From contig OZ234494.1 of NCBI GenBank assembly GCA_965153455.1, positions 1,116,001 to 1,180,000 of the forward strand: a DNA stretch of 64,000 nucleotides, given 5' to 3'. A program made the translations under genes and the position numbers. Source of the DNA: Sphagnum compactum (lineage: Eukaryota). Positions 6,391-40,200 of the stretch are shown one piece after another (position 1 is the stretch's first letter; each line of letters starts with the position of its first letter). The notes beneath the pieces are model-generated. The model saw only the letters and a program-made list of their open reading frames with translations, searched no databases and was not told the origin of the DNA.

Positions 6391-7083
6391 GAGCATCTCC
6401 AGTGGTGCTCAGTATGTGATCCTACACAACACAATTGGATGAAGAAAAGTTAGAATATGCCGGTTTGGCTCAGAGTTTGCGGTGGCTGGTAAAGGGCACA
6501 GCAAAGGTGTGCACCTCCAAAAAAGACTGTAATAAATATGATTTGACTGGTGCTCACTGTTTTCTGATTGGTCCAGGTGGTTTGCTATTAGTAGTCCCCC
6601 ACCTATTTGCTGTCCCAGTCTTCATTTTATGTGTGGGGTTGCAAAAAAGTAAATAACTAAACTTGGATGGGAAAAATACTTTTGCAGGGTCACATACGGA
6701 GCACAGCTAAAGATGCTCATAGATGAGCATCCGAACCAACGCTCACTCTGTGACCCTGCAATAATGTTTCTCACATCCAAATTTTTTTAGTTACTAACTT
6801 TTTTCCACCCCACCATTAAACTGAAACTCGGATTGCAAGTGGGTGGGAGACTACTAGTAGCAGTCCACTTGGACCAATCAAACTATCTACCCAATCAGAA
6901 ACAGGGAGGGAGCAGTCAATAAATAGGAATTGACTGTCTTTTTCAGACAGTTCCCGGGCTCTGAAAGATCTGCATCTTTTCAGGGTCCCAGGAGTGTTCC
7001 AATGGATTCACTGGATTTCATTGATGAACCTCATCAAAGATGTCCAGTCCAGAGTCACATACTGAGCATCGGTGGAGATTCTC
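6391..7083. mobile_element. Tourist-like MITE (two subunits), nested in a GGTAT-rich repeat
   Basis: TIRs gagcatctccagtggtgctcagtatgtga / tcacatactgagcatcggtggagattctc with TAA target duplication; an internal degenerate end sits near 6690-6735. Confidence 0.75.
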
Positions 7084-10230: not shown

Positions 10231-10332
10231 TTTTGTAACCAAATTATAAAGTTACAACAATTTATTTTTCTTATATAATTTTTTTCAATTCTATAAATTG
10301 CAAGCATCTACATACGTGGTTAACCGCGTTAA

Positions 10333-12110
10333 TTAGTTAGGTATTTGACTGTGTAAAAAACATAGGTAGGTAGGTGAACATAATGGTAGGTAGGAAGGTG
10401 GGTGCATAGGTAGGTAAGTAGGTACATAGGTTGGTAGTTGGGTTAGTAGGCAAGTTAGTAAGTAAAAAGGAAGTTCAAAGAACAAGGTAAATAGGTTGTT
10501 AGAGTAGGTAAGCATGTAGGTAGAGAAGTTAATAGGTAAAAAGAAAGTTACATTAACAAGGTAGCTAGGTAGATAGACAAATTAATATGTAAGAAATAAG
10601 TTACCTTATCAAGGTGACGAGGTTTGTAAAATACTTATGTCAATAGGGTGTTTGTAAATATAGAGTTAGTAAATAGTAATGTAACTAGGTCAGTAGGGTA
10701 CGTAGTTAGTACAATGGTTAGGTCAGTAAGGAAGTTAAGTTAATAAGGTATGTAGTTAACAGGGTAGCTAGATTAGTAGGGTAAGTAGTTAGTATAGTAG
10801 TTAGTTAGTATAGTAGTTAGGTCAGTAAGATAACTAGTTATTAAGACAGAGTTTGACAAAACAGAGCTAAGGGGGATTAAGTGGGGATGAGAGAAGAGAG
10901 CGCCAATTTTCAAGACCTCCGAATGCATATTATGCATTTGTTCCAAGTTGTATTTCATCCGTGAGTCTAGTAGGGGTAGTGGGTTGCACCAGACAAATCC
11001 CTGGTGAAAAGTTTTACAGCAAGTTTTTCGCATTCTGTGGGGTGATCGGAGTCTGTGAGGATGGAGCTTGTTGTTTTGCCGACACTGTCAGTGGAAACTC
11101 ATGAGAGAAGGATCGGAGTGATCTGACCCCCATAGGCTCTTAGAATTTAACCTTATGCAAGGGAAGTGGATTGTGTTCAAGGTTATGGACTTTTGATGTG
11201 ACGAGAACTTACATGTGCCCCTGGTTTTTCGGTACAAGGGTTTCTTCAATAACACTTAGTCTGAACAGCCAATGAAACGCTTTTCTCAGTGACCCTGTGC
11301 TCCAAGGCTCCAAAAGGGACAAATGTACATTCCGATAAAGATTGCTCCAGAAAGTTGTTCTAGAAAGTTGTTCCAAAAAGTTGAAATTCTATAAAGTCAA
11401 TGGATGAATATGTAAGGCCCGATAGATTGTGAGAAATGATGGATCAAATGTGAAAATTGTTGTACTATGCATGCACATCAATAACTGTGAGAAATGATGG
11501 ATCAAATGTGAAAATTGTTGTACTATGCATGCACATCAATAACGTCATGTAAAGTCTAACCTGAGACTTTCCAAAATATTTTATACACAACAACCTCTGT
11601 GACAAGCATGCCCAAACTTGTCAAACGTGTTTAGTTGCAAGACCTGCTTGAGCAATCTGCTGCCAATTTACCACTACAACTGACCTATCACATGGACAGA
11701 GTGCGCTCCACTATTAAGAAATTGATGCAACAAAGTTCTAAAGTCTCTAGAAGTACACAATCTGCTGCCAATGAAAATAAAATTTTCATTACAACTAACC
11801 TATCACATGGATGGAATGCACTATATTGCTAAGAAATTGACACAACATTGTGTTTAAGTGCATTAGTGCAGTAAGCTTGCTAAACTTTATTAATGAAGGC
11901 TTCAATTGGGGAGAACGGGATGCATAAAAGGAGAGAATCTTATGAGTAAGGATCTTTGGTGGATAATTTGATATAAAAGTTGTTATTGTTGCGATGTGAA
12001 GGAGTAGAAATTGTGTTTCTGTGGAATAGGTGATCATAGCTATTTCAGTGATTTTGTGCATTTCAAAGTTCGTTTGTGAAGAAGAAGAAGAAGAAGATAT
12101 GGGGTCCGGT
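10333..12110 (+). repeat. Internally deleted third copy of the CCD upstream region
   Basis: Colinear direct matches: ~10333-10845 to ~33180-33665, ~10846-11025 to ~34280-34460, ~11028-11945 to ~34535-35397, ~11946-12110 to ~36920-37077. It ends at ggggtccggt, about 170 bp before the ATG-equivalent position. Confidence 0.85.
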
Positions 12111-13866
12111 ATCCACCATGACTTTTTATCACTTGTGACCACCAGGTATTAATTAGTTCTATTTCAAGTTTTGCTTTTGTGACTTACACAATATTCAAAT
12201 TATCCTCCTAAGCCCTATTTTACTTTTCAAAAATTTCCAAAATCTTTCAAATGTTGTTCAATCTTCAAGAGTCACTATTTATCACCTAGTGACCACTAGG
12301 TATTAGTTTTATTTTATGTTTTGCTTTTGTGATTTATGCAATATTCATATTAGCCTTCTCTCATTTGATTATTGTAATCACTACCAATAATGATAATGGG
12401 TCAAAGCAAGATAAAATATATGAAAAAAATAGACGTCTTCATTTTGACCTTGTGCCTCTCATATAACTAACATAAAATAACATCAAATTAGGTGAAAGTA
12501 TGTGTCAAATAACATTAATTGCTCTATTAAATTTATAAGAATTTAATTCTAAGAGTATTTTTTTAAAAAGAATTTGAAAAGTAAATAAAAAGTATATTTA
12601 AAACCAACTAAAAAAATGAGTTCAAACCTATTTTTTGGTTAGAAAAATTAATGAAATTGACATGTAATAAATTAGGAAATGAATGTCAACATATGTTCTA
12701 GCAAGACTTCATTAAAAAAAAAATTATTTCCTTTTTGTAAAAACCTACTTGACACTTACTTGAAACCAAAAGCCCATAATGAAAAGTACACGTCAAAACC
12801 CTTAAAACTACTTTTACAATTTGAAATATGAAAATCAATGCACATTAGGGTGAACATATATCATACTTAGTTATTGAAATGAAAGCATTCAATGCTTCAC
12901 AATTTTATAATGGGTTTTGTTGCTATTTTAAATTTACTTGTTCTAGTTTTGACAAGGAAATCATGTTGTTCACTATATTTTGCTTACACCAAGTTCAATT
13001 TGTAATTTCAAATTTTTTAAAACTATTTAAATTGTTTTAAGTTATTTTCAGACTTTTCGAAAGTTTGAAATTAATTAAAAACATGTTCTATCCTTAACCC
13101 TAACCTAAACATTACACTTCAACATCAATTTATATGTAAAACCTTAATGTTAAACCTAAAACCATAATCTTAAACCTTAAGCCTAACCTTAAAACTTTAA
13201 AGTTAAACCAAAAATAAATAAAATAAATAACTGGTAAGTTTTTTGATATCAGCCTAATATTGGTATTAGGCTACTGATTTTGGGCTCATATATGCTTGGT
13301 ATATAGACTAGTATGACACTAGTATAACCTCAAGTTCCTACGAGCTTGTACTAGTATTAAACTGGTACCAGACTTAAGTCATATCAGATTTGTCTAGTAT
13401 TTGATATCAGTGTTCATACCAATATTGATACCAGTTTCTCACCCTACATTGGTCAACATCAGTCTCAAACCATCAATGAAAATCTATTAACCTTAACAAG
13501 GTTATTAAACATGATCATTGCTAATGCCATTGATGCTAACCTAGCACTGTTCTTATTGCACTTTTTTGATACTGAGATTTTGGCAAAATTTAACCAAAGA
13601 AAATAGTTGAATTGGTCGAATTTATGTTAGGAAAGAAAAAAATTCTCAATTTCTTTGTGAAAAATTTCACCAAATTAAAATAATACCTTAGATTTGTTTT
13701 TTGAGCTGCCAAAATGAACAAAGTCTTGGGTCGCAGTCAAATGGGGATCCTCCATCCTGCAAAGTACTCAAAATCTATTTTCTGGTTGTATTCTCAAAAA
13801 AATTTCAATACTCAAGTTGCTTCTAAGCACTTACTCTCTAAACTTCATTCCTATCGGGAAACATGA

Positions 13867-16800
13867 CTATGCCAAAGAAGGCCTTCGGTTAGAAAGTTGT
13901 TCATTTGTGACAAAAAGACCATGGAAGCCATAAGGAATTCGATGTGGCAACTTGAGAGATGTAACTATTTCAAGAGTTGGTGAACGTGCATCTAAAATAA
14001 GGAGTTTTGATACATTGGCAGTTTCGTCATGGTAATATGTGAGGATGTAGCCATCATCCTCCAAAATAGACGGATCCGTACTACGGGGTACAAAATAGGG
14101 TTCACTACAATAACAATTTGCTGGGAATTTTTGCCAACCAACAACAGCTTGTTGTGTAACATCATTATTTTGTGAAGCTTCCAAGTCGAATTTGGCTATT
14201 CCTCCATATTTCGGGAATGGTCCTGACAATACTCCATACACATATCTTGTCTTCTTACATTGATACATCTTGTTGAATTGTCCACCATCAAAGTTGGCAT
14301 TACTTGCAACCTCTTGTTTATATGCTTTTCCTGTCTTGAGGTTGAGATGAAATGTTGCTAACCGCAATTCAAGTTTGTCCGGATGCTGAAAAGTGAAATG
14401 GATTGGTGATAGTGTAGATCCAACCACAACAATCTCATCACCCTCCTCCCAAGCATTCACATAGTGGAAACATGTGCTATCCGGAAGGTCAAACCACTTG
14501 ATTCTTGCTTCTGTTGTGGCATTCCTTGGCAACACTCCAAACCTAGGGATCTTTTTATCATCAATGCAAACTGGTGATTTTGCATTGAACATCTCCTGCA
14601 AGAAAAATGTGGATTTGAAGACACCATAATATAATATGTCAAAAGTCTTAGATACCCATTCACATGGATGGACTCTATTTATATTTACCTCATCTTGGCC
14701 TCACATAAAAACATAACAAATGCATTTCCCTGAGAATGGTTGAACTTATGTAAAGGTCATAATTACCTTTAACATGATCAATGGAAGAAAAGAAGTCTTG
14801 AATCATTTGAAATGTCATATTGTTGCAACTCAAGTGCATGCTTGCATTCTAACTACAAAAAAAAATCAATTTTATTTGGTGAGGCCATAGATACCTGCAA
14901 GCGAAAGACAATTTGAGTATCTGGAAACACTATGTATTTGCTTGTGATTGCAAAGTCATGTATGAGACATGGTTCCGGAAGAGTGATGTTCACATTTGCA
15001 TGTTTTCTCCCATCAACTGAAATTTTGAAGAGTGTTAGGTATGGAGCTTGGAAAAAGTTGACACTGTAACTGAACATCTCCCCTGTTTTAGGATCAATCT
15101 TTGGATGCGCAGTCTTGTTGGTAGCTTTGAGTGCTCCATTAAAATCGTATCTACAACCAGAAGGTATAATACAATTGATCTCTATGTGAACCATGCCCAT
15201 GTCAGTTGCAAGCACAACATTGGATGTAATAGTCCTCAAACAATAATTTAATGCCCTTACTCTGTGTTCTATTGTAGTTTTTGACAATTAGTCATACATT
15301 TGTGCCAAGAAGATGGATTACTTGGAATTTTATATTTTCCAATGTGATTGAGTAACCTGCACCTACATTTAATCAATGAATGAAATGCCTTCAGATAATG
15401 TATGATACATCATTCACAGTCATCAGTTCGAAGACTCAAACAATATGGGGGAACTTTTTGTTGATTGTTTTCATAAACGGAACATCTAGGTCAAATCCTT
15501 CACTTTGACTGGCAGGTTAATAGAAGCCCATTCTCCTCAAAGGGCAAGGCAACCCTGCCTTCAAAATATTTGGCCCCAGGTGTTTTTTAATCGCAATTTT
15601 TTGCCATTTTTGGACCTAGATACAAAGGATTTTCAATGAAAAAATGGGTGAAATTCACCAGATATGTATGATAAGTTCCAGCAGGTAGCCAAATAATAGA
15701 AGGATGATTATTTTTTCTTTGGCTATATCACAAAATTGGACAAAGAAAACACTCTGCCCAATAGTCTAAAAACTTAGAAATTTACAGTTAGATTATTGTA
15801 GTAACATAAAAGAATCAATCAGACTCTTGTTCAACCAGGGGGAAAGTGAACAAGCACATCTGAAAGTCAGCTAGGGAATTCCAAGCTCTCCTTGAATTCT
15901 ATTTGTATAGGTGTTCTAATACGGAAAGGGAATGAAGCAGAGTTCGTTTGTAAACAAACTCTGAACCAGTGTACTAGTTAGTGGTGGAATGTTGCCAGAT
16001 TTCACCCATGAAATGGATTTGGCAACCATATGGCTTAAATTTTGATGGTGTTTTTGAGGCAAAATCATTAAATGGTTTGGAGAGCTGGCCTCCTAGTTCA
16101 GCCAGACTCATTGTGTACTATCGCCCCCAGAGTCCAGACAGGAGTGTCAATTTAGACACAATCATAGAAACTTACAAACTTCCATTGCACACCATTGTGA
16201 GGTTAATGACAATAGTCTTTGAGAATAGAGGAAGTTTAGAGCTGAACCGGAGATTTTCAAAGTGCTCTGGTGGGTGCTAAACCAGCTATTACATGCAAGT
16301 CTGGAATCCCAACAGCTAAGGGAAAGGTCCCACGAGGCTTAAGGAACAGAGTGCAAGACACCAAACAAAAGCGTTTAAGGACTCGAGAGTGCAAGAGAGC
16401 AAACAAGAGACTTCAGTACTCAGGAGAGCAAGACACCAAACAAGAGCCTTAAGGAAGTCTAGAGAGTGCAACAGACTCCACGCGAGACTTAAGGACTCCA
16501 GAGTGCAAGAGAGGAAACAAGCTCGACTGTGCACCAGCGAAGTCGCGGGACAAACTAGATCACGGGGTTTTGTTGGGAAGAACTCAGAACCTACCTTCCA
16601 ATGGTGCGGAGGTCTCCATCGTCTGTGATATGAACGGCATAAGGTTGATCATCCTCCGACATTGCCAGCAATTTGCCATTGAAGAACGCCAAGCCTGCAT
16701 TGGCAGTCCCGGTACCACCAGCAGGGTCAAGCACACCTAACGTAGCTCGAAGACCAAACAGTGCTAAGCGTGGCAACCCAATCAACCCGTGTATCTCCCC

Positions 16801-18305
16801 CATCATCTTCGGAAACAAAGGCCTTCCTGCCTTCTCCTCTTGTATAACCTAGTGCAGTTCAAGTTCACACCAAGTACAACACATGATTGCAATAAGTCCT
16901 TCTGAGCTTCATCATTTCTGGAGCTTCATTTAACTAGAACAATCGGGTAGAGTACATCCTGTTTCTATGGGACCCTAATCGTCTCTTTCCACTAGGCTGC
17001 TTACGGCACACTGCGTGTAACTGTGATCACAGCAGCCTAATGGAAGGCCATGACATAGGGTCTTGTTTCTTACTGCACTCACAGTCACTTTCCAACTCTA
17101 ATGAAAATAAGTAATTAATCATGTTAGGAACTCTGGAAATGCATGTTCTAATGAAAAGCCCTTCATATAGCGATTTGGTGGAGGGTTAGTCGTTTTCCAT
17201 TGGAGACCTGCAAATTGTGATGAAAATATGTAATTAATCATGTTAGGAACTCTTGAAACACATGTTCTGATGGGAAGCCACTAACATAGGGTCTTGTTTC
17301 TTGCTGCATGGACAGTGGCTTTTTTTTGGAGAGCTGCAACAGTAATGAAAATATGCAATTAATCATGTTAGATACTCTGGAAACATGTTCTCTTGAAGGA
17401 ATACACAGATGTCATCGTATGGTGAGTCACTGTTTCACTCCTAGGTCTTAGCGCTCCTGAAATTGACCGGTAGAGCTGTGAGATGACTGTGAGCACACCT
17501 AATGGATCACAGCAGCCTAATGGAAAGATGTCCTTCGTGCGTACCTGTTGGTGCGAATGTAGCGGCAGCAATAGGTGGCTTTACCGTCGCGGAACTTGAC
17601 AATGTGCAGCATACCGTCGCCATCGAAGTAATGGTAACCAAAGCCCGGCTCATGGCGAGGATTGGCACCATTTCTCAAATACACCCCGCCATTCAAGCAG
17701 CTGGGGATAGTCCCGGACTCAATCTCCACGTTCTCGTCCGGAGGGCATTCACGATCAACAGGTGCGAAATTTCCAACCGTGAACATCTCTGGGGCAGATG
17801 GGTTTATCAGAGGTGATACCGTTGTCGATCGGCCTACTTCTATCCAAGTCGCTAGTAATGTCTCAGCCGTGTTCAAAACTGCTTTCTCGATTAAATTACC
17901 GCCAGCTACTGATGATGCTGCTGCTGAGATCCGAGGTCCCACTTCCGCGATCTGAGCTCGAACTTCTCTTCTTGTTGTTGCAGCAGCCTCTCTGCGCGCC
18001 GAGTTCGAGTCATCAAAAGATGTCAACTGCAACTCCCTAACTACACGATTGCTACGAGTAATTCCAACTTGAATATGCTTCAATTGCGCATTCATGAAAA
18101 CTGCATGAGATGGGTTATAAGTACTCATGCTCCGTTTCCAGATGAATGCAGGTGTAGGCAGCGAGCTAGTCGGTGATCTCCAATTACAAATTGCAGTATA
18201 TGATATTGTTCTCTCCCGGGCTGCACCAGCTGCAGAATACTGACTCGGCAAGGCAATTGCAGGACTAGTACTCGGAAACAACATAGTACTCACGTGGAAC
18301 GCCAT
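13867..18305 (-). pseudogene. NCED/CCD4-like carotenoid cleavage dioxygenase, copy 1 (frameshifted)
   Basis: Exons 18305-17545, 16848-16595, 15150-14895, 14595-13867 with GT-AG introns. Motifs [20 protein letters not shown] and four Fe-binding His ([23 protein letters not shown]). Exon 2 is 254 nt versus 255 nt in copy 2 (ggttataca vs ggttcataca), which shifts the frame to an early TGA. Confidence 0.85.
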
Positions 18306-19579
18306 GATGCTCAATATCTTTACTACTACTGCCAAGGACGTCTCCTGAAGTAGCTACTAGCTAGCTCTCTCTCCCCAGTCCCTCAACCTCAGCTGAATTT
18401 TTTTGCAACAGCTAGCTTCACTACATGAGCTTTCACACTCAAATTATCTCAGGCTTGAAAGATCTACTGCAACAGCACCCCATATCATCTTCTCATTCTT
18501 CTTCTTCACAAACGAACTTTGGAATCCACAAAATCAGTCATATAGTTATGATCACCTATTCCAAAGAAACACAAATCCTAATCCTTCACATCGCAACAAC
18601 AACAACAACTTCTATTATCAAATTATCCACCAAAGATCCTTGACTGGTCATAAGCTTGCCCAAAAAAATTTATAAAAATTCTGTAACCCTCCAACCACTT
18701 TGAAAACGAAGTGATCAACAAAGAAGCGCTACAAAAATGCCACAAAGGACAGATTAGATAGAGTGGGGAAGCAAAGAGCCTGCATAGGCCTGTGTTTTAC
18801 ATGATTCTGTTGATTTACGGAACTGCAGATCATATCCTTTCCCCCCCCCCCAATCCTGGTACTTTTTGTGTGTTCATTTGCATGCAGGTACACTTTTTCC
18901 CACTAGAAGCTCCAAGTCGTCAAGATGCCGCAGGGGTCACTGACATGCAATGGGTCGGTCACTTTTACATTTCAATGAAAATGAGGGAAAAACAATTACC
19001 TCAGTCCAAGCTAAGGGATTTTGTTTGATGGTTTTACTTCTGGAAGTAAATTTATAAAACGTTTAAGAAATAAACCAGGCTCACCAAAACAAATATTTGG
19101 AATGGTTATAAAATTTGAAAAAATCGAATATCTATTGAATATATTTTCATTATTGGTTAGTTATCATATTTTATCCTATTTATAAACAAAATAAGTAAGT
19201 ACCGCCTTGCCTTAAGGCAAAAGAAGAAATAAGGACACTCAAATATTTCACCAGAGAAGAATATAATCTTCAAAAAATCCTCTAAAAGAAACCAAAATCC
19301 TTCAAGATATTTTAACTCTATAACAACTTTCAACACAAGCCAAAATATAATCTTTCAAAGATCCTCTTATACAAATAGACCTATTACCTAAGGGCCAAAA
19401 TCCATTAGGCTCCTATAATCTATAATGAATCTAAACACAATATTCTTGCGTTGGTAGGCAAGGCCAATAAACAACAAGAGACATTTATCTCATCTTTAGT
19501 TCAGAATTACGGTAGTTACCCAAAAAGTACCCATCTCAGCCTCTGATTCCACTTGCATATGTCAACTTTCCAGTTGACG

Positions 19580-20563
19580 TCCAAGCTGCTGGAATCTGCT
19601 GCCTCCCCTTGCAATTGGGATTTATAAATAGCTTCTGCCACAAACAGGAAGCGATCTCTCCATCTAATATATTAAAGCAAACGTGGTGTCTGTCTGTCTG
19701 TGTGGACAAAAATTGGGCAGTGCCTGGAAGATTCTTCCAGTCACTGCCCGTTCCCTGGTGTCTGTCTGTCTGTCCAAAATATCGCGGGCAGGGCAATCTA
19801 ATATATTAAAAGTTAAACCTACCTACTTAACTGCCTTAAATTTTTGGTTGGTACAGACAGTTGGTAGGAAAAGAAGGGAGGTAGGTAGGTAGGTAGGTAA
19901 GTGTGAAAGAGAGGTAGGAGGAGAGGTAGCCAGGTAGGTAGAAAAAGTGGGTAAGAAGACAAGATAGGTAGGTAGGAAGGAGAGGCAGCCAGGTAGGTAG
20001 AAAAGGTGGGTAGGGAGACAAGGTAGGTAGCTAAGAAGAAAGGAGAGCCAGCCAGGTAGGTGGAAATTGTGGGTAAGAACACAAGGTAGGTAGATAGGTA
20101 GGAAGGAAGGAGAGCCAGATAGGCAGGTAGAAAAGCAGGGTGAGAAGTCAAGGTAGGTAGGTAGGTAGGTAGGAAGGTAGGAAGGTAGGTAGGAGAGGCC
20201 AGGGCAGCCGCTGCGGGGGCCCGGGCGAGGTGCCACGGGTGGCTGGAGTGGCGTAGCCACGGGTTGCCCTCACTCGTTCCACTTGAAGTCCAAGCTGCTG
20301 GAATCTGCTGCCTCCCCTTGCAATTGGGATAACAACTTGGCCACCTTTAGCCTGGGATTTATAAATAGCTTCTGCCACAAACAGGAAGCGATCTCTCCAT
20401 TCCACTTGAAGTCCAAGCTGCTGGAATCTGCTGCCTCCCCTTGCAATTGGGATAACAACTTGGCCACCTTTAGCCTGGGATTTATAAATGGCTTCTGCCA
20501 CAAATAGGAAGGTTCTCCATCGCATGAAAGGTTGAGAATTGACGTATTTCATCATCCATCTTT
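19580..20563 (-). other. rbcL: 123-bp tandem repeat containing a plastid rbcL-derived fragment (NUPT-like)
   Basis: Minus strand reads [10 protein letters not shown](T/DR)[13 protein letters not shown], matching RuBisCO large subunit [26 protein letters not shown]. Units start at 20278 and 20401 (period 123), with a deleted third unit at ~19580-19662. Confidence 0.85.
19663..20276 (+). mobile_element. Non-autonomous Helitron
   Basis: Inserted between A and T without a target duplication (removing it restores the repeat junction ctcca|ttccacttg). 5' end TCTAATATATTAAA, 3' hairpin GTGGC-gta-GCCAC, terminal CTCG (variant of CTRR); TAGG-rich interior. Confidence 0.8.
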
Positions 20564-21427
20564 GCACAAGGTAAGGGACTTATAAAGTTCTCTACTTTTG
20601 TATATCCCCTTCTACTGATTGGAGCCTTCATTAATAAAGTACACTCCATCCATGTGATAGGTCAGGTTTCATGCAATTTACTTTTTCCCCTCGAAATTGG
20701 GACAACTACATGGCCCCCCCCACCTTTATCTGTGCCCAATGAGTAAGGGAGTCATAAGATTCTCTCATTTTATGCATCCCCTTCTCCCCATCCGAGCCTT
20801 CATTAATAAAGTTTAGCAAGCTTACTGCACTAATAGACTTTAAGACAATGTTGTGTCAATTTCTTAGGAATATAGTACATTACATCCATGCGATAGGTTA
20901 GTTGTGAAAATTTTATTTTCATTGGCAGAAGATTGTGTACTTCTAGAGACTTCAAAAATTTGTTGAATCAATTTCTTAAGAGTAGAGTGCACTCCGTCCA
21001 TCTGATAGGTCAGTTATAGTGTTAAAGTTCTTTTTTGGGTTGGCAGCAGACATTTTACTCATAGCTCAAGCAGGTCTTGCAAGTGTGACAAGTTAAATGC
21101 AACACAATCTTCAATATAAGTTTGGGCATGCTTGTTACAGATGGTGCCAATAAAATATTTTGGTAAGTCTCAGGTAAGACTTTACATGACATTATTGATG
21201 TGCATCGTACAACAATTTTCACATTTGATCCATCATTTGTCACCATCTATCCGGGCTTACATTCTCATCTATTGTCTTTATGGAATTTCAACTTTTTTGA
21301 ACAACTTTCTGGAGCAATCTTTGTTAGATTTTCCATGGTTCCCTTTTGGAGGCTTAGAGAATAGGGTCATCAAAAAATGGGTTTCATTCGCTGTTCAGAC
21401 TAATTGGTTATTGAAACTCTTTAGTAC

Positions 21428-21763
21428 TAAGCTCAATTTCAGTGAATCCTGAAATTAGTTCATACCTGAGGCAGAGCTGAGCGGCACTTCCAACTGGCTT
21501 TTATGCTCTGAATTTGGTTTCTCTACTACTTTAGTAACCTTCTCTAAGCTAAACTTTCAATTGGGTTTTTTCAATGTTCCAAAATTGTTAGTGGCCTACA
21601 AAAGACAAAAAGAAAAGCTCCAGAGAAGTGGCATGGGAGTTTTGTAGACTGTTTTGAAGCTTTTTGAGATTGTGAGACTTTTGTGGAACTTAGTAACTGT
21701 TTTGGAGTTGAACACGTCGTTTGCAGGGCCCAAACTATATCTCACTTAATCTTAGTTATAACC
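21428..21763. repeat. Inverted repeat of 28238-28572
   Basis: About 335 bp matches the reverse complement of 28238-28572 (e.g. tctactactttagtaaccttctctaagctaaactttcaat). Confidence 0.85.
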
Positions 21764-23199
21764 AGCAGAAAAAAGGGGGCAAGTGCCATAGCTGAGGAAT
21801 GTACATGGGCCCATAAAAAAGTGGCCGTGAAAGTTCAACTTGCTGCATGGAATTGAAACCAATGTTGTGGGTATCTAAGGCCCACTTTAGACAAGGGTCC
21901 AGGGTCCAATTTCCTAGGAACCAATTTGGACTGATTTGAAGCAAATTGAATCCTTGAGTTGGACTGTATCTTTGTCCCTAGCCTAATTCTTGGTTCTCCA
22001 CATCAGGAGCTCTCCTTTGGCACTGTTTTTGTGTCTAAACCAATTGATTTTCCCTCCAAAATAGCTGCCATGTAGGTTTAGCCTCAATTTGCCACTTTTT
22101 GGTCTTGGACCCTTCTCTTAAGGCCTTGGGACCAACTTAAAGCTTTTGACAATAAGATTGCTTGAATTCATTGGTCCCTGGACTTTGGTCCCTCGTCTAA
22201 AGTCGCCCTTAGAATCAACTACAGAACTTTTAAACCGATTTTCCTCAAAAACCCAGAATCGCTGATTCTTTGATTCTGAAAGTTTTAAATCACCAGAACT
22301 GCTTGTTATTTAAAAAATCAAATAACTACACAACACTGATTGAAACCAGGAAAATATTAAACAGGCCAAAAGAAATGAATGCAGTCAGTACAAAAGTGCT
22401 GCTGCGATATTTTCCTCCAGTCTGCCCATTTGCCCCATCCATATTTTCTCAAGTGACACACAGGCATGTTTTGTACTCGTAACCTCATATAATACGGCAT
22501 GTTTTGCACTTGTAACCTCACATAACATGCCAAGTAATATGTTACATACCCCTTTATACCTCTCATGTGTTCAACCAGGACCCCATAGGTAATTGTCTTT
22601 TATTGAGCTGTGCCTTTAATAAAGGACTGCACATTCACCTGGTGGAATACCTTAATGTTATATCTTGCATGTACCTTGTGGACAGACATAGGTTATCTTT
22701 TAGGAAACCTGACCAGGGTTTTTTATATAAAATATAAAATGTGCACAAGTGGCAATAGGATATCCCTCTAATATGCCTAACTGACTTCTTTTGACAGAGG
22801 ATTATGTGCTTCTTGATCATTTGTTGAGTCAGTTTTTGGTACACATGGATCTTTCAAAATAGTCCAAAGTGGCTATTCATGTTTTTTAGAAATAAGTTCA
22901 CGTGGCACCCACAAAATATTTCAAGTAAGTCTCATTGGCACCCCAGCCACAAAACCACTGAAGAATGTGGCTCCATTATTGAAAAGGAAGGAGAAATAAA
23001 GACAAAAAGTGACATTGATGCATCAAAGTTCAAAATTTCAAACTTACAAACTAACACAAATATTTCGAAGGGGAGTTGAACCCCACTCTAATATCAGACT
23101 TTGTCCAATGTAAACTCAAAGTCTCATCCATCACACCCAAATGTCAATAAATCTCATAATCTCATAAGGAACCAAACATAATCACAATTCATTGGACTT

Positions 23200-25000: not shown

Positions 25001-25759
25001 CCATGATCCTAACAAGTTTAGTGAATTCCAAATGTTGTTTAAGAAAGCTGAAAAAATAAAAATACAATGACTACAACAAATTCCAACTAACCACAATACC
25101 CAAATTTGAATAACAAGATTCATATAATATTACAATTTCCAATTTTCTTTGAAAAAACATGTGGGGAGATGTGGGGCGTCCCAATTTTTGGGGTGTTTGG
25201 TATGGATATAGCAGGCCAGTTGCCAAAATAAAAGGAAAATGTAATAAAACTTTATGAATCATTCCCTTAATCAAAAAAGAAAAAAATCAATTTGCAAGAA
25301 ATTGTGTTACCAAAAACAAACCACACAAGGTATTTACAAAGGTATAGTCAAAAGACAAGATCTTAAGTAAAAAGATATGATTCTTAATCATATGCTTAGA
25401 CTTCAATCAAAATTGAATTAAGGATAAACTTTTCAACACTTGCCCTTAAACACTACATTCATATCCTAAATGAGAAATCATCAATATAATCAATCATCCC
25501 TTCATCATATCTTAAATTTTTAACTAGATCAACTATTACTTATGTTTGTATCCCTTTCAGGGAGTTCTTTAACCTAGACTCCATCTTCCTTTTGTAAAAA
25601 CGACACATCAATTGCATTTCTATATTTCACATGTTTATTTTTAGAAACTTTTAGACCTAGGAAGTCAACAAACGTTTTTTTAGTGTTGTTAAGACATGAG
25701 GTGCATTCCCCTAGTCTCTAATTTTTTTCAATAAAATGTGTTTGGCTCTTGCATGAAAT

Positions 25760-27900: not shown

Positions 27901-29149
27901 AGTTTGAAAGGGGAATAATTGTAGATATGGATTTTATGAACCATGATGGCATTTTTATTATGATTATAAAAAGAAAAACACAAAAAACCCAAAAAAAAGT
28001 TTTTAAAAATATAAAAAACAGAAAACCTTGATTTATGATAATCAATTTGTGAGATCTGCCCTTGTAATAGGTGGTTTGAAATTCTGTGAGACTTGCTGAC
28101 CTTGAAAATTGCCTTATTAGATTTTTTTTAGAATTATGAAAACCTAGGCAATTCTCAAAATGAAATTTTAAAAAAAAAAGGAAAAAGAAGCTAAACGATT
28201 TTCTAAACCTGCACAGAAAACGAGAACCACCCAACATTGGTTAAAACTAAGATAAAATGAGATACATTTTTGGCCTTTCAGACAACATGTTCAACTCCAA
28301 AATAGTTACGAAGTTTCAAAAAAGTCTGAGAATTTCAAAAAGTTTCAAAACAGTTTATAAAAGTTCCATGCCACTTTTCTGGAGCTTTTCTTTTTGTCTT
28401 CTTGTAGGCCATTCACAATTCTAGAACATTGAAAAAAATTTAATTGAAAGTTTAGCTTAGAGAAGGTTACTAAAGTAGTAGAAGAAGCATTAAAGCATAA
28501 AAGCCAATTAAAAGTGCCCCTCAGCTTTGCCTCAGGCATGCATTAATTTCGAGATCACCCAAATTGAACTTAATACTCAAGGGTACGATGAAAAATTAGG
28601 GGATGAAACCCTAATGGTTATGTATAGTACCATCATTTGTCGAAATTTGAAGGTGACAAAACTTTGGCAATTGATGGTGATTGATGATGGGTCTTGTGAG
28701 TTTTTGTTTTTGTGTTTTCTTGTTTTTTTTGCAAGTTATGAACTTGTTGGGATCTTTATGAATGACGATGTTCAATTTGGAGTGAATCTCCTGATGGGTG
28801 AGCTCTATGGGTTGGAGTGAACCAGTAACCACTAGTGCACTAGTTCGCGATGAGGCCCTTCAAACTATTTTGGGGATGAACCAAAAACACATCCTCTTCC
28901 CTTGCCCATGGATTTTTCAGCCCCCTTCCCTGGCTGAAAGTTTTTCCCTCCTACCTACTCCCCCACCCTCCTACCTACCTCCCTCACCTCATTTCCCGCT
29001 CACTCCATCTCCAGAGCTTGGGAGAGCTCCCGAGCTTGAGTAGCATAGAGCTTCGAAAAAACGTGAGATATAAGGCTTGAGGAAGGTGGAGAGCTCAACG
29101 TTGAAGGAATGTGAAGAGGAGAAAATAAGAGGAGCACTTCATCCCAAAT

Positions 29150-30350: not shown

Positions 30351-33300
30351 AAGGTTTAATTTGGTGGTTTTTAGGTGTTTATAAGGTTTAGGGCACAACA
30401 AAGGAAGAGTTTATTGTAAATGCAGTTCAAGCTAAGATGCAACGTTGCCATCTATACACTGCTCGTCATGCAAACAAAGGCTAAGGGCTACAAATGCAGC
30501 AACTTCTTACAGAATTAAACACGAGATTATAGATAATGATATGGTTTAGGGTTTCCACTTTATATAGTTAGCTAGGTTTCGTTAGCCTTTTCATTTTTTG
30601 GACTACCCAATTTTTGAATTTTGTTCTTTTGATATATTATAGAGAACCTTTTTTTTATTATGTTTTTTAGCATTTTTTGATCCATTCATATTTGTACATC
30701 TTTTATCAATATAATATTTTCTTCTAGTCACACTTGTTTGATGGGTATATGGTTAATTATATGTCTTTTTTTTCATAATCTTCTTAGTATTTTAGATGTA
30801 AGAATCAAAACTTAAATATGCCATACGAATAGGTAACATTAATTTGTCTGAGGTTTACAAAGATCAAAATGAACATTGTACAATACCTACATCCTTTGTA
30901 TAAGGTCATTTCAAATATGCAATACCCACATATAGGTTTTGTAAATAGTTGCTAATTTTTTTACATCCATTGCAATACCAGCATATAGGTCTTATAAATA
31001 GTTGGTTTTTTAAACATCTATTGTAATATTCGCATATAGGTTTAATAGTTCATTTTTTTAATATCCATTACAATACTCGCATATAGGTCCATAAATAGTT
31101 GTTGATTTTTAACATCTTGTGCAATACTTGCATATAGGTTTCCATTGTAATATTTATGGGACTCACATGACATAATAATTTAGTTTACTATCAACAAATA
31201 ATGTCATAATTAAGGAATTACAAAAAAATAATTTTAGATAATATAAATGATTGATTATCATATTTAAACAATCAGTTATTTCATAATATAAATTAACTGA
31301 TTATTTGGTTGAATTTTAATTATTCAGATAATTAAAATTTAGATCTAAAAATCAAATGAATAATTTGATATTTAATTTATTATCTTAATTAAATTTTTTA
31401 TGTTGATAAGTTATTCAAATCATTATTTTTGATAATTATTCATGATAATTAATTGTCATAAAATTAATTTAGATATATATAAAGAAACATATTTTGGGTA
31501 CCCAAACCACTTATTTTGAAGTGACCTTACATGTGGATATTGCATTTACGGTTGATTATTCACCTAAGGTTGTCTAAATCACCTATGGATTATTTCAAAA
31601 TGAACTTGCAGCAGGAATTGCATATAAGTTTTGGTTTTCATTGAAAGGCCACCCAAACTACATACTAGTTATTTCGAAATGACCCTACATGTGGGTATTG
31701 CATTTAAAGTTGGGTCTACACCTTAAGTTACCTAAATCACTTAAGGGTTATATTAAAACAAACTTGAATATGGGTATTGCATTTAGGGTAACAAAAAAAA
31801 GGTATTTCTATTACCATTTGGTAATATTTCCAAGTTAAGTTCTTTCATTTTTAAAAAAAAAATATAAAATGACATTGTATTGTTTTACATATGTTTAAGC
31901 CTTAAAAATTCCACCCAAAATGCACCTTAGATTTATTTTAATTATTATAAACTTGTAAAAAAAATGTTAATTAATTTATATGTCCTAAACTCTAAACTTA
32001 AACCATAATTCTAACATTAAATAGTAAATTTTACATTAAACCCTAACCCCATGTAGCATCAATGTGACCAATTTTGCATTATGTTCATTTTTATATATGT
32101 TAAATCATACTATAAGGTGAATAAATAATTTTGAAAACATGAATTTCATGATGTATTGGTGGGGAATCAAATATTTAAAAAATATTTTTATGTTTCATGG
32201 TTAATGAATTATCACAATATGATAATGGGTATTACATTTAAACAAAAGTGGGTTAGGAAATATTGAACTTTAACAACTATGGAACATATGGAAACAAAGG
32301 AGATTCATAATTATGTTATAAATCTAAACAAGTGGTAAAAATAAAAACCAATACAATGAGCAAAGTCTAAAGTATAAACCTTAAGCCTTGATATATATGA
32401 ACCAAATTCCCAAACATTAAATCACAAGGCATAACCCTAAAAATCCAAATGATATTTTTCCATAAGCCCTATTACAACCTTAATTATACAAACCTTAACA
32501 AAACATAATCCGAATGATTTATGTCCTAAACCCAAAAAACTATACAAAGTATACAAATTATATAATGTAAAAGAAAAAAATTCAAAAAAACATAGGAAAA
32601 ATTTTAGAAACCAAATTTTAAAGCTTTTAAATTACAAAAATTTACTCACCAAAAGAATACCTTAATATTCAAAAACAATCAAATAAATTTTGTAAAAACC
32701 AAAAGAAAAGATATGTCTCTTACCTTTGTGTGATCTCTCCAAACTAATTTTTTCCACTCTTTTTCAAAAAGATATAGAATGAAATTATATTACTTCTCAT
32801 ATGTTTAAACACTAAAATTTTCCCCCCAAATTTAGCCTAATTTAGGTTAATTACTATAAATTTGTGAAAATTTGCTAACTAATTTATGTGTCCCAACCTT
32901 AAACCTAAACCTTAATTCAATAATACATATTTATAACAATTACATGAAAAGATGTACTATAATGTCCATTCCATAAATAAATTAGATAAATAAAATTTAA
33001 TAAAATATGCATTAACTAAACCAAAATGGCTGCAATTATGGCATTGTTCCATTGTAAATTGTTTGTAATAACTACATATGGGAACCTATGTTCATCATCC
33101 ATGAATTAAGGCCCACAGTAATAAATTGATAGGTAGGATTGGGGGGTTGGGGGGTGGGAAAAGTGAGTAGGTAATTAATTAGGTATTTGGTTATGTAAAA
33201 AAATAGGTAGGTAGGTCAACATAGTGGTAAGTAGAAGGTGGGTGCATAGGTAGGTAAGTAGGTATATAGGTTGGTAGTTGGGTTAGTACGCAGTTAGTAA

Positions 33301-36300
33301 GTAAAAAAGAAGTTCAAGGAACAAGGTAAATAGGTTGTTAGAGTAGATAAATATGTAGGTAGGGAAGTTAGTAGGTAGGAAGAAAGTTAAACTAACAAGG
33401 TAACTAAGTAGATAGGCAAGTTAATATGTAGAAAACAAGATATTTTATCAAGGTGATTAGGTTTGTAAAATACTTATGTCAATAGGGTGCTTGTGTATAT
33501 AGGGTTGGTAAATAATAATGTAACTAGGTCAGTAGGGTATGTAGTTAGTACAATGGTTATGTAAGTAAGGAAGTTAAGTTAGTAAGGTATGTAGTTAACA
33601 GGGTAGCTAGGTTAGTAGGGTAGGTAGTTAATATAGTTAGGTCAGTAGGATAACTAGTTATTAAGGTATTTATGTTAGTAGGGGATAATTAGTAAGGTAC
33701 CAAGGTTGGTACAGTACTTATGAGGGTAAGATGGTGAGTAGGGTAGCTATGTGTGAGGTCAGGTCCAAGGAAAAAATAGCGAAGAACAAAACCCCCAAAA
33801 AAAAAGAATAATGGTCAGCAGTGAAAAGAAACGGACTGTGATGAACCCCATCTGACGTCAAATGAAAACACGTAGCTCATCCAGTGGATTGAAAGGTCAA
33901 CTGGTGCATTGGTGACTGCTGGTTCACTCTGGCCAGCTCTATGTGATGTGGAGCAACCGGTCAGATCTTCTTTGTTGGATGTCAATCAAGTTTGAACGGT
34001 GGTTGAAGCCACAAAGGGTTACAAAGTTTCTGCGATGAAGGGAAGTTTTTCAGCACTCATTGTGGCTTGGTTTTTAGTTTTAGTTTTTGGATTTGGTTCT
34101 GTTGAAGGTTTTAGTTTTGGGAGTAAGAGGGGACACATTGGAAGGAAAATGCCAGAAGGTGTGAGTTTCATAAATACTGAGGGCTGATAGAATTTTCGTT
34201 GCACTATTCATCCTTTAGAGTGTTTCACAATAAAAGTAGGAGCTTATGATTGGGGGGATGATAGGGATCTTGAGAGTGATAGAGTTTGGCAGAACAAAAC
34301 TCTTGGGGATTAAGTGGGGATGAGAGAACAGAGCGCGGATTCTCAGGAACTCAAATGCACATTGTGCATTTGTCCCGGGTGGTATTTCATCTGTGAATCT
34401 AGTAGGGGTAGTGGATTGCATCAGACAAATCCCTGGGGAAAAGTTTATCTACAGCAGGAGATACTATCAAATCTTCTCTCACACCATGTTCTCAAATCCT
34501 CAAGGTCTTTTGATTGGTAGGCATTTAAGGGTGTCGCATTCTGTGGGGTGATCGGAGTCTGTGAGGATGGAGCTTGTTGTTTTGCCAACACTGTCAGTGG
34601 AAATTCATGAGAGAAGGATTCGAGTGATCTGACCCCGTAGGCTCTTAGAATTTAACCTTATATGCAAGTGATGTGGATTGTGTTCAAGGTTATGGACTTT
34701 TGATGTGATGAGAACTTAACTTACATGTGCCCCTGTTTTTTCGTTACAAGGGTTTCTTCAATAACACATAGTCTGAACAGCCAATGAAACCCATTCAGTG
34801 ACCCTATGCTCCAAGGCTCCAAAAGGGGAAAATGGACATTCCAACAAAGATTGCTCCAGAAAGTTGTTCCAAAAAGTTGAAATTCTATAAAGACAATGGA
34901 TGAATATGTAAAGCCGGATAGATTGTGACAAATGATGGATCAAATGTGAAAATTGTTGTACTATGCATGCACATCAATACCGTTATGTAAAGTCTAACCT
35001 GAGACTTTCCAAAATATTTTATAGACAACAACCTCTGTAACAAGCATGCCCAAACTTGTCACACGTGTTTAGTTGCAAGACCTGCTTGAGCAATCTGCTG
35101 CCAACCCAAAAAACATTCAACACTACAACTGACCTATCACATGGACAGAGTGCGCTCCACTATTAAGAAATTGATGCAACAAAGTTTTAAAGTCTCTAGA
35201 AGTACACAATCTGCTGCCAATGAAAATAAAATTTTCATTACAACTAACCTATCACATGGATGGAATGCACTATATTGCTAAGAAATTGACACAACATTGT
35301 CTTTAAGTGCATTAGTGCAGTAAGCTTGCTAAACTTTATTAATGAAGGCTTCAATTGGGGAGAAGGGGATGACATAAAGGGAGAGAATCTTATGAGTCCC
35401 TTACTCATTGGGCATAGATAAAGGGGGGATGGGCCATGTAGTTGTCCCAGTTCAAGGGAAAAAAGTAATTTCCATGACAACTGACCTAACACATGGTCGG
35501 AATGTACTATCACTATATGGATGGAGTGTACTCTACCAGTAAGAAATTGATGCAACAAAGTTTTTAAACCCCTTAGTGCGGTAAGCTTGCTAATTATACT
35601 ATTTTATTTTGTGAGCCTGGTTTATTTCTTAAACGTTTTATAAAATTTACTTCCAAAGTAAAACCATATAACAAAATCCCTTAGTTTGAACTGAAGTAAT
35701 TTTTTCTCCTCATTTTCATGGAAATGCAAAAAAGGTGACCCCAGCAGCCTCTTGAGTGAAATGAAGAGCTGAGTAGATGCCACACGCAAACAACTTGGAG
35801 CTTTTGGGGGAAAAGGTGCACCTGCAAGCAAATGGAATCATGTAGCACACACAAAATGTCAAGAAGGATTTGGAGGAAAGATATGATCCGCAGTTCCGTA
35901 GATCCACATGAGGCCTATGCTGGCAAGATGCTTTTTCAATGTATCTCATTTGATTTTATTTTTTATTTTTTGAAGAAGAAGGCAACAGGTTGCGATCACA
36001 ATCGAATGAGCCAACCATGACGAAACACTCAAGGACTACAATACTATTTGTGGTTATTTTCATTTTTTCAGAGAAAAGGTTTTTGGGATGAAATTTTTTA
36101 TAATATGTTATTAAAAATATATATCATTTTTTTAATATATCGCAATTTTTTTATTAACTTTTTATGAGTAATTATTTTTTTGAAAAAATGTACAGATTTT
36201 ATTAAATTTTGCGTTTTGGTTTGAAATTATTTTAATTTTAAATTGTTTATAAATATGTTAATTATTTAATGTTTTTCTTTGTTTTTTTATAAACTATAAT

Positions 36301-37243
36301 TTTATTTAAATGTTATGTTCATTACACCCTGTTTATCTTGTGGTAAAGGACATTTAAAATTTTGTTCAATAAATTTTTAATTTTTAAAATTTTTAAATTG
36401 TGAGTGCTTTTTGAGTGTGGATAATCAATTAACATTATTTTATTTGTTTTCTAATAAAAAAATATAAAGAATTTTTTTAATTTAATAATTTATAAAACTG
36501 ATTCCTTTTCATTCAAGTGGTGTTCCAATTCAAAAGTGCTTTACTAAAATCAAAATTCAAAATATTAATTTTTTTTAAAAAAAATTCTTAACATTCATAT
36601 TAATTATTTAACAATACATTTCATGACTAACATGGCATTAAAGTGACACGAAAAAATATATGTAACAAAATTATAATTTTTATAGAGTTTTGACCATTGC
36701 TAGATGTGTTTTTCGACTCATTTAATTGTGACTGCACCCAATAGGAAATTCGACAAACAAGTAAATTCGAGTAACTTGGGTGCCAATACACCCAAGTCTG
36801 CTTTGTTTGGTCCACTTATTTAAACATTCACCTTTGATAAAAAGAAAAAGCTCTTATTTCTTCATCACTTTGTTCTCAAAGTGGTTGGAGGGTTACACAA
36901 TTGTTATACTTTTTTTTGGCAAGGATCTTTGGTGGATAATTTGATATAAAAGTTGTTGTTGCGATGTGAAGGATTACAAATTGTGTTTCTGTGGAATAGG
37001 TGATCATAACTATTTCAGTGATTTTGTGCATTTCAAAGTTCGTTTGTGAAGAAGAAGAAGAGGATACGGGGTCCGGTTGCAGTAGATCTTTAGAGCTTGA
37101 GATAATTGAGTGTGAAAGCTCATGTACTGAAGCTAGCTCTTGCAAAAAAATTCAAGCTGAAGTTGAGGGACTTGAGAGAGAGAGCTAGCTAGTAGCTACT
37201 TCAGGAGACGTCATTAGCAGTAGTAGTAAAGACATTGAGCATC

Positions 37244-40200
37244 ATGGCGTTGCACGTGAGTACTATGTTGTTTTCGAGTACTAGTCCTGAAATTGCCATG
37301 CCGAGTCAGTATTCTTCAGCTGGTGCAACCCGGGAGAGAACGATGTCATATACTGCAATTTGTAATCGGAGATCACCGACCAGCTCGCTGGCTACACCTG
37401 CATTCATCTGGAAACGGAGCATGAGTACTTATAACCCATCTCATGCAGTTTTCATGAATGGGCAATTGAAGCATATTCAAGTTGGAATTACTCGCAGCAA
37501 TCGACAGCGCCAGGTAGTTAGGGAGTTGCGGTTGACATCTTTTGATGACTCGAACTCGGCGCGCAGAGACGCTGCTGCAACAACAACAAGAAGAGAAGTT
37601 CGAGCTCAGATCGCGGAAGTGGGACCTTGGAGATCAGCAGCAGCATCAGTAGCTGGCGGTAATTTAATCAAGACAGCAGTTTTGAAAACGGCAGAGACAT
37701 TACTAGCGACTTGGATAGAAGTAGGCCAATCGAGAACGGTATCACCTCTGATAAACCCATCTGCCCCACAGATGTTCACGGTTGGAAATTTCGCACCTGT
37801 TGATCGTGAATGCCCTCCGGACGAGAACGTGGAGATTGAGTCCGGGACTATCCCCAGCTGCTTGAATGACGGGGTGTATTTGAGAAACGGCGGCAATCCT
37901 CGCCATGAGCCGGGCTTTGGTTACCATTACTTCGATGGCGACGGTATGTTGCACATAATCAAGTTCCGCGACGGCAAAGCCACCTATTGCTGCCGCTACA
38001 TTCGCACCAACAGGTACGCACAAAGGACATCTTTCCATTAGGCTGCTATGATCGGAGCAGCTTCCCAATATGTTTTTTCAAGTCGCTGTGCTCATAGTCA
38101 TCTCACAGCTCTACAGGTCAATTGCAGGAGCTGTGAGGGTAGCGAGTCAAACTGTGACTCACCATACAATGACATCTGTCCTTTCTTCCATGACAACACT
38201 TGTTTCCAGAGTTCCTAACATGATTAATCACACATTTTCACCACAGTTGCAGCTCTCGAATGTGAAGCAACTGTCCCTGCAACAAGAAACAAGGCCCTGT
38301 GTTAGTGGCTTCCCTTTGAAACATGTGTTTCAAGAGATCCCAACATGATTCATTACATATTTTCATCACAATTTGCAGCTCTCCAATGGAAAGTCACTGT
38401 CCTTGCAACAAGAAACAAGGCGGTATGTCAGTGGCATTCGTTTAGAACATGTATTTCCAGAGTTCTAACATGATTAATTACATATTTTCATCACAGTTGC
38501 AGCTTTCCAATGGAAAGTGACTGTCCTTGCAGGAAGAAACAAGACCCTATGTCAGTGGCTTTCCATTAGGCCCGGGCTGCTGTGATGAGAGTTACACGCA
38601 GTGTCCTGTGAGCAGCCTGATAGAAAGAGACCCCTGTACCTTACATCATTGTTCTAGTAAAATGAAGCTCCAGAAACAATGAAGCTCGGAAGGACTTATA
38701 ATCATGTGTTGTACTTGGTGTGAACTTGAGCTGCACTAGGTTCATACAAGAGGAGAAGGCAGGCAAGCCTTTATTTCCGAAGATGATGGGGGAGATACAC
38801 GGGTTGATTGGGTTGGCACGCTTAGCACTGTTTGGTCTTCGAGCTATGCTAGGTGTGCTTGACCCTGCTGGTGGTATCGGGACTGCCAATGCAGGCTTGG
38901 CGTTCTTCAATGGCAAATTGTTGGCAATGTCGGAGGATGATCAACCTTATGCCGTTCATATCACAGATGATGGAGACGTCCGCACCATTGGAAGGTAGGT
39001 TCTGAGTTCTTCCCAACAAAACCTCGTGATCTAGTTTGTCCCGAGACTTTGCTGGTGCACACAGTCGATCTTGTTTGCTTTCTTGCACTCTGGAGTCGTA
39101 AAGAGTAAAGGTCCGGTAGATTTTTTCTAGTGTATTTTTAGGACGATTTTGTCTTCACATTATTCAAACATACCTCCTCGAAAGATCCGCTTTCAGTACC
39201 TAAAGTTTAGCTTCAGGAAAAAAATTTAATTTTTTTGGGCAAAACTTAATTAAAAAAAAGTGTGAAAAGTTACTATCGTCATAATTTTATTTATTAAATT
39301 TATATATTTTGAGTAATAACCAGATTTGGCTATGTATTAAAGGACCAATTGCATGTTTTTCAACAAGAAATCTCCATTTTGGCTACTACAATGTGAATTT
39401 TCTCTTTGCGCATTAGTCATCGTTCACACCTACTCCTCGTTAGATTCGCTTTCCATTTAGCGAAAGGACATAATACCAAAAAAAGCATAGAAAAAGTGGA
39501 AAGATGGAAAATTGTTGAAAGAAAAATCTACCAGGATCTTTACCGAGGTGAAGGTTCCGCTGGTAGTACCTTCCAGATTTTGGGGCCCCTCCTCTCGGCC
39601 TAAAAAATCTGGCCTAATGGCCTCAGGTGGGCCCTCAAATCCGGAAGGTACTACCATGCAAAACCTTCTCCTACACCTAAAGTCTCGTGCTGGGTCTGTT
39701 GCACTCTTTAGACTTCCTTAAGGGTCTTGTTTGGTGTCTTGCTCTCTTGAATACTTAAGCTCTTGTTTGCTCTCTTGCACTCTCGAGTCCTTAAAGGCTT
39801 TTGTTTGGTCTCTTGCACTCTGGTCCTTAAGCCTCATGGGACCTTTTCCTTAGCTGTTCGGATCCCAGACTTGCATGTTAATAAGCTGGTTTAGCACCCA
39901 CCAGAGCACTTTGAAAAATCTCCAGTTCAGCTCCAAACTTCCTATGTTCTCAAAGAATATTATCATTAAGCTCACAATGGTGTCCAATGGAAGTTTGGAA
40001 GTTTCTATGATTGTGTCTAATTTGGCACTCCTGTCTGGACTCTGGGGGCGCGATAGTACACAATCAGTTTGGCTGAACAAGGACGCCAGCTCTCTAAACC
40101 ATTTGATGATTTTGGCTCAAAAGCACCACCAAAACTTAAGCCATATGGTTGCCAAATCCATTTCATGGCTGAAATCTGGCAACATTCCACCACTAAATAA

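Follow-up and report, generated by a model that had tools for sequence, protein, structure and literature searches.

Introduction

The junctions of NUPTs, plastid-derived sequences joined to nuclear DNA, typically show microhomology of 1-7 bp, according to the part of PMC7037861 available to us. In the rice nupts, host bases were lost in only 2 of the 14 cases covered by the accessible text of Wang and Timmis (2013, PMC3698918). For tandemly duplicated NUPTs, the role of slippage is described as unconfirmed in the excerpted account of PMC12863932. Our literature search found no paper on NUPTs of Sphagnum among the titles listed.

In this study we analyzed a window of 64,000 nucleotides (the whole stretch of Sphagnum compactum DNA under study, contig OZ234494.1; positions are counted from its first letter), in which a short piece of the plastid gene rbcL lies upstream of a carotenoid cleavage dioxygenase (CCD) gene. 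The block contains plastid-derived sequence, is joined to nuclear DNA and has an empty site, which is seen in two paralogues within the window and in a contig of organism C (X13) that may be a close paralogue rather than an orthologue. It resembles the indica-specific rice nupts, as far as the consulted text of PMC3698918 describes them, in that a plastid piece stands between host flanks and a relative shows the empty site, and also in its junctions, one with a short microhomology and one with just one shared base, and in that no host bases were lost. Unlike them, it is found in a moss, measures 87 bp and was later tandemly duplicated along with host DNA. With the tandemly duplicated NUPTs of PMC7037861 and PMC12863932, in the portions available, it shares the same-orientation copies of one organelle fragment and the association with a transposon. 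The unit found here, however, straddles the plastid-host junction (41% plastid, 59% host), and, in contrast to what the available portion of PMC12863932 describes, the pattern of the copies points to homology-guided exchange, the transposon having probably come after the amplification. We consider it highly probable that the block is a small NUPT whose history can be read and which most likely has no function. In kind it is known, an ordinary though clean chloroplast-to-nucleus leak of the sort treated in the parts of PMC7037861 and PMC12863932 at hand.

Results and Discussion

The locus and its surroundings

The first exon of CCD copy 1 (Pfam RPE65) was found at 17517..18305 on the minus strand, with the block situated 1.3-2.3 kb upstream of the ATG. 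The gene is part of an inverted duplication (13762-18730 and 36849-42600; Pfam RPE65) with 86-94% DNA identity, and the first exons of copies 1 and 2 are stop-free and 88% identical as protein. The CCD upstream region has a third copy, a partial one, at 10330-12105; it matches 33172-35397 and 36921-37077, apparently with no CCD gene behind it. Self-BLAST found no counterpart of 19096-20557 upstream of CCD copy 2, except for the likeness of the host part of the unit, and the metagenome rbcL loci had no further match in the window. The restriction of the block to the region upstream of CCD copy 1, as proposed in the initial annotation, was thus borne out.

The window contains several other repeats. 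Two direct repeats of 1096 bp (48708-49803 and 52234-53329), 99.8% identical and about 2.4 kb apart, start with TG and end with CA; the letters TGGTATCAGAGC directly follow the first of them. Judged by these features, the pair resembles a short LTR element of very recent origin. A stretch of about 316 bp (6565-6880) is self-complementary and MITE-like, with 75% identity to its own reverse complement. Two dispersed repeat pairs were also found, one 95% identical (1-257 and 25422-25677) and one 83% identical (21416-21764 and 28238-28584), the latter starting where the likeness to the region upstream of CCD copy 2 ends.

The plastid donor

The captured plastid piece occupies 20472..20557 on the minus strand. 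As the donor reference we used the 1428-nt rbcL CDS of a moss-type plastid contig (L001). The piece, which includes the rbcL part of the first of three tandem copies, corresponds to nt 604-690 of this CDS (codons 202-230). It differs from the CDS by two substitutions, a loss of 3 nt, an insertion of 1 nt (20546) and one additional base at the left junction. Copy 2 corresponds to nt 640-690 (50/51 identical) and copy 3 to nt 640-686 (46/47 identical). In the BLASTN search against plastid contigs, copy 1 gave a significant rbcL match (90% over 91 nt, E 1.5e-27). At the protein level, Pfam RuBisCO_large matched the RbcL part of the frame above the curated cut-off (E 9.4e-8), and RbcL residues 206-235 were matched in the PDB (E 1.6e-8), where all 60 of the sequences listed (62 matched) were RbcL. 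The proposed rbcL origin of the first half of the unit is thereby confirmed. The unit had also been placed just past the KDDE motif; the 1-nt insertion at 20546, however, shifts the DDE codons out of the reading frame of the unit. A transferred gene would show a near-complete frame with KDDE in frame; the piece holds 29 of 475 codons, with DDE out of frame.

A scan of the metagenome contigs with a 33-base motif gave five loci. Two of them (L001 and L004) have an uninterrupted rbcL frame, and the other three (L002, L003 and L005) carry short or mutated rbcL pieces. These three would be other nuclear rbcL copies, and, because they make up three of the five motif loci, rbcL scraps look common in these mosses. 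L003 and L005 end at an almost identical rbcL position, and an X13 contig (461 bp, depth 31) resembles another, separate low-copy rbcL piece. The plastid contigs of organisms B (X9) and C (X13) depart from the window at 20545 and 20349, respectively, at the ends of the rbcL match. Since the plastid DNA here already encodes the conserved residues, there is no editing site that could serve as a marker, and donor DNA and donor mRNA are indistinguishable. Outside the captured piece, codon ~105 of the L001 rbcL specifies Ser (in AYPSDLFEEG) in place of the usual Leu, which we take to be a likely C-to-U editing site.

Host flanks and empty sites

The left host flank (20558..20640, minus strand) is the start of a non-coding sub-repeat of about 175 bp in the CCD upstream region and showed 78-79% identity to 20728-20812 and 35333-35419 in self-BLAST. 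The right host flank, which is the 72-bp second half of the unit (20400..20471, minus strand), showed 82% identity over 33 nt to 20686-20718. Two empty paralogues of the sub-repeat were recognized, one adjacent (20640..20815, minus strand; by alignment) and one upstream of CCD copy 2 (35330..35510, plus strand; by self-BLAST and alignment). In the alignment, the filled site and both empty paralogues are collinear on either side of the insert, and the rbcL piece appears as a clean gap. The score of the 72-bp half against the adjacent paralogue (36) was reached by none of 1000 shuffles and that against the paralogue near CCD copy 2 (29) by 1 of 1000. When the comparison was extended to the whole masked window, 1 of 60 shuffles reached 36. 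The shuffle score by itself is modest, and the collinearity of the sequences is the stronger pointer to a host origin.

An X13 contig of organism C (depth 21.7) connects 20329 directly to 20558. It skips 228 bases and lacks rbcL, and the 17 letters at the join resemble the host half of the window. This contig represents an empty site, orthologous or closely paralogous. Because the second half of the unit is collinear with the empty paralogues, and because the flank in X13 is joined without rbcL, this half is host DNA of the landing site.

Two further likenesses were considered and dropped. The end of the host half recalls RbcL FQGPPHGIQVE, but its DNA score against the rbcL CDS was reached by 154 of 300 shuffles (reverse strand, 30 of 300), so that a second rbcL piece was rejected. 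The likeness of the host half to 35600-35900 is attributable to chance (603 of 1000 shuffles). A coding origin of the host sub-repeat found no support: stops occur in all frames, and of eight short frames, which are weak queries, seven had no Pfam family and one had a sub-threshold match (E 0.12).

The junctions

At the left junction, the six letters AAAGAT (20558-20563) are common to the host and the plastid rbcL, and a short repeat of those letters adjoins. On the minus strand of organism B, A replaces G at the extra base 20557, which gives a plain 4-nt repeat. The right junction shows one shared T (1-nt microhomology), with a looser likeness beyond it. Relative to the empty site, no host bases were lost. 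A break in the non-coding sub-repeat upstream of CCD copy 1 may thus have been patched by 87 bp of plastid rbcL, held by AAAGAT on the left and T on the right, and we infer end-joining repair at the insertion. The idea that the block began as filler DNA captured during repair agrees with what was seen here: the donor, the host flanks, the empty site and the junction microhomology.

The repeat array

Tandem Repeats Finder detected 1.9 copies of a 123-bp unit at 20277-20511, with 98% matches. A minus-strand frame (20148-20579) is uninterrupted through copies 1 and 2 and yields the 41-aa unit that had been noted before. All three copies lie on the minus strand. Copy 1 (20400..20519, 120 bp) consists of rbcL nt 640-690 minus 3 nt plus the host half. 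Copy 2 (20277..20399, 123 bp) shares its first 47 nt with copy 3 and its last 90 nt with copy 1. Copy 3 (19568..19662, 95 bp) has lost 28 bp between two ATCCCA repeats, carries two further substitutions and is out of frame. The exact 41-aa unit is present in copy 2 only, since copy 1 reads WRT for WRDR as a result of the 3-nt loss.

The initial annotation had described an in-frame array of three 123-bp units encoding a repeated 41-aa sequence. The frame is indeed open over copies 1 and 2 and there are three copies, but the adjacent in-frame units are only two; copy 3 is frameshifted by its 28-bp deletion and is separated from copy 2 by an element of 614 bp. The block, moreover, does not end at 19580 as had been given but reaches 19568. 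The Helitron-like insertion and the broken copy 3 had been overlooked. Just beyond copy 3, at 19546-19584, the sequence holds an inverted repeat of 7 bp, and the last 9 letters of the unit occur there once more; this might be the scar of a repair or what was originally the right flank.

Proposed order of the amplification

The differences among the copies are arranged in blocks. Between copies 1 and 2, the last 90 nt are identical and all three differences lie within the first 33 nt; between copies 2 and 3, the first 47 nt are identical and the three differences all lie past nt 47. The two identical blocks overlap by 14 nt. Under an even scatter of differences such a pattern is expected in about 0.5% of cases, a figure calculated post hoc. 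Copy 2 is thus likely to be a hybrid of copies 3 and 1. The block pattern itself is observed; the order of events and the mechanism are our reconstruction of it. A 123-bp segment, made of the last 51 bp of the rbcL piece and 72 bp of host DNA, would have been duplicated in tandem, and both copies would then have diverged. Unequal exchange or slippage within the 14-nt stretch that is identical in all copies could have produced the hybrid middle copy, making three in total. The tandem amplification to three copies that had been postulated earlier is accordingly upheld by the copy alignments and their blocks of identity.

The 614-bp element

The element between copies 2 and 3 (19663..20276, plus strand; 614 bp) is high-copy, as judged from its 3' 77 bp, has an AGGT-rich interior and is inserted between the A and the T of the copy 2/copy 3 junction. 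Helitrons are characterized by a 5' TC, a short palindrome close to the 3' end and integration between an A and a T with no target duplication, as given in the available portion of Grabundzija et al. (2016, PMC4778049). The element starts with TC, preceded by A, and ends with CTCG, followed by T. A target duplication is absent, and excision of the element recreates the exact unit junction, identical to that between copies 1 and 2. A hairpin with a 5-bp stem (20248-20260), 16 nt from the end, was found in a 56-nt fold and was absent from an 81-nt fold. Among the X21 reads of related element ends, 56 read CTAG|T and 89 read CTCG|T. In the X21 raw reads, the 3' 77 bp of the element had a depth of about 175, versus 0-3 on single-copy DNA, with many different loose ends.

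The 5' TC, the insertion between A and T, the lack of target duplication and the many copies are all features of the non-autonomous Helitrons as described in the excerpts from PMC4778049; the short 3' palindrome, another of these features, was seen in one of the two folds. In contrast to these Helitrons, the present element ends with CTCG where they have CTRR, and its hairpin stem has no more than 5 bp. Since the CTRR end is lacking, we call the element Helitron-like and not a Helitron. It would have entered the A|T of the second unit junction after the amplification; because it is present in one of two otherwise identical junctions, it was probably the last to arrive.

The block in other organisms

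The comparison with reads and contigs covered 4 of the 23 listed sequencing runs. An X9 contig of organism B (462 bp, depth 77) covers 20365-20824 with 6 differing letters and 2 gap letters. Both NUPT junctions lie within it, and it extends 35 letters past the junction between copies 1 and 2. Five substitutions and the gap fall in the flank. Since the differences lie mainly there, organism B has both indels of the rbcL-derived DNA, the insertion of 1 nt and the loss of 3 nt, together with no fewer than two of its three substitutions. The shared junctions and changes show that the insertion and the first duplication are older than the split of organisms A and B. Organism C shows the empty form, and its flank differs by about 6% (18 of 319 letters). 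The joining of the plastid piece to nuclear DNA is supported by this X9 contig over both junctions and by the intron-containing CCD gene nearby. In a Hi-C run of organism A, the depth was 0-4 outside the element, too thin to confirm the junctions. A multi-copy mobile carrier of the rbcL block was also considered and rejected: the flank depths (77 in X9 and 22-29 in X13) match those of single contigs in other parts of the stretch.

Alternative explanations

The depth of plastid DNA in X9 exceeds that of nuclear DNA about 50-fold (3982 for the plastid piece versus 77 for the nuclear contig), a setting in which plastid reads might be merged into a nuclear contig during assembly. The window, however, carries substitutions and indels relative to the plastid, the independent contig of organism B has identical junctions and nearly all of the changes, and, in three studies of organism A, eight runs contain 55-84% of the sampled words, so that an assembly artefact is extremely unlikely. 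The initial annotation had further suggested that the unit is a patchwork of abundant transcripts, an rbcL piece being followed by a piece of eEF2, on account of a likeness over 10 residues, to which the tools used here gave no support. The empty paralogues and the empty site of organism C identify this second half as host flank, that is, the sequence beside the break. Its 24-aa translation, a weak query at that length, had no PDB match at E<=10 and no Pfam match at E<=1, and stop codons occur in all frames of the host region. The patchwork and the second donor are therefore abandoned, as they have practically no chance of being correct. A weak peptide likeness beside a NUPT junction, as this case cautions, can be mere host flank. 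Somewhat less remote, though still quite unlikely, is a single complex repair event in which repeated template switching (plastid, host, plastid) made the array, the first tandem copy being an independent second capture of rbcL nt 640-690. Such an event would be in keeping with the closer resemblance of copies 2 and 3 to the plastid (50/51 and 46/47) than of copy 1 over an equal stretch, with the short TGGA on both sides of the copy junction and with the 4-nt repeat at the left junction. Against it, the host half was repeated along with the rbcL half and is identical between copies 1 and 2 (72/72), and both second captures would have had to stop at the very base where the rbcL of the first capture ends. 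A simple duplication takes fewer steps, and we prefer duplication followed by exchange.

A further alternative concerns the open frame. An ATG-started frame of 135 aa (20148..20555, minus strand) runs through the RbcL piece and the host half twice and then reads through into the element. It might be a proto-gene, born from a plastid scrap and host DNA, transcribed and under weak purifying selection. The ATG was brought in frame by the 1-nt insertion, the 3-nt loss preserves the frame, and the unit length is a multiple of three. In the rbcL-derived DNA, all three substitutions are silent with respect to the open frame (P ~0.016, calculated post hoc with a simple neutral model). None of them is C>T or G>A, the changes that dominate NUPT decay according to the part of PMC7037861 consulted. 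Between organisms A and B, at most one difference was found in 191 bp of the frame (3.6 expected) versus 5 substitutions in 268 bp of flank; this deficit is, however, non-significant (P ~0.13). In the RNA run X22, a single poly(A) library of which 11.9 million records (about 12% of the run) were searched, with no positive-control gene in the stretch, 24 records were placed, 20 of them only partly. Their depth did not exceed 1 on the rbcL part, the remainder fell on the element end, and the depth was 0 at 20282-20445 and 20569-21400, which include the host halves and junctions. Furthermore, copy 3 is frameshifted, the frame ends within a transposon, the piece represents 29 of about 475 RbcL residues, and a stop-free 24-codon host half arose in 24% of 20000 shuffles. 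The proto-gene is thus very unlikely, and the 135-aa frame is probably not a gene. Because the rbcL codons are without stops and the unit length chances to be a multiple of three, the open frame can be understood as a by-product of the insertion and duplication. The substitutions are only synonymous and the divergence between A and B in the frame is low; for these reasons we leave a slim chance for a broader reading, either a young gene, its 135-aa frame selected open since before the A/B split, or a regulatory change that makes CCD copy 1 respond unlike copy 2.

Significance

The significance of the locus is limited, since short NUPTs are common and the block looks inert. Should the frame prove to be expressed and under selection, it would be a compact example of a gene born from DNA of organelle, host and transposon. 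The amplification apparently proceeded via short local homology, a step still unconfirmed for NUPTs in the available account of PMC12863932. As it stands, the block has a modest value as a worked example from a moss, in which the donor, the empty site, both junctions and the order of the later events can be read.
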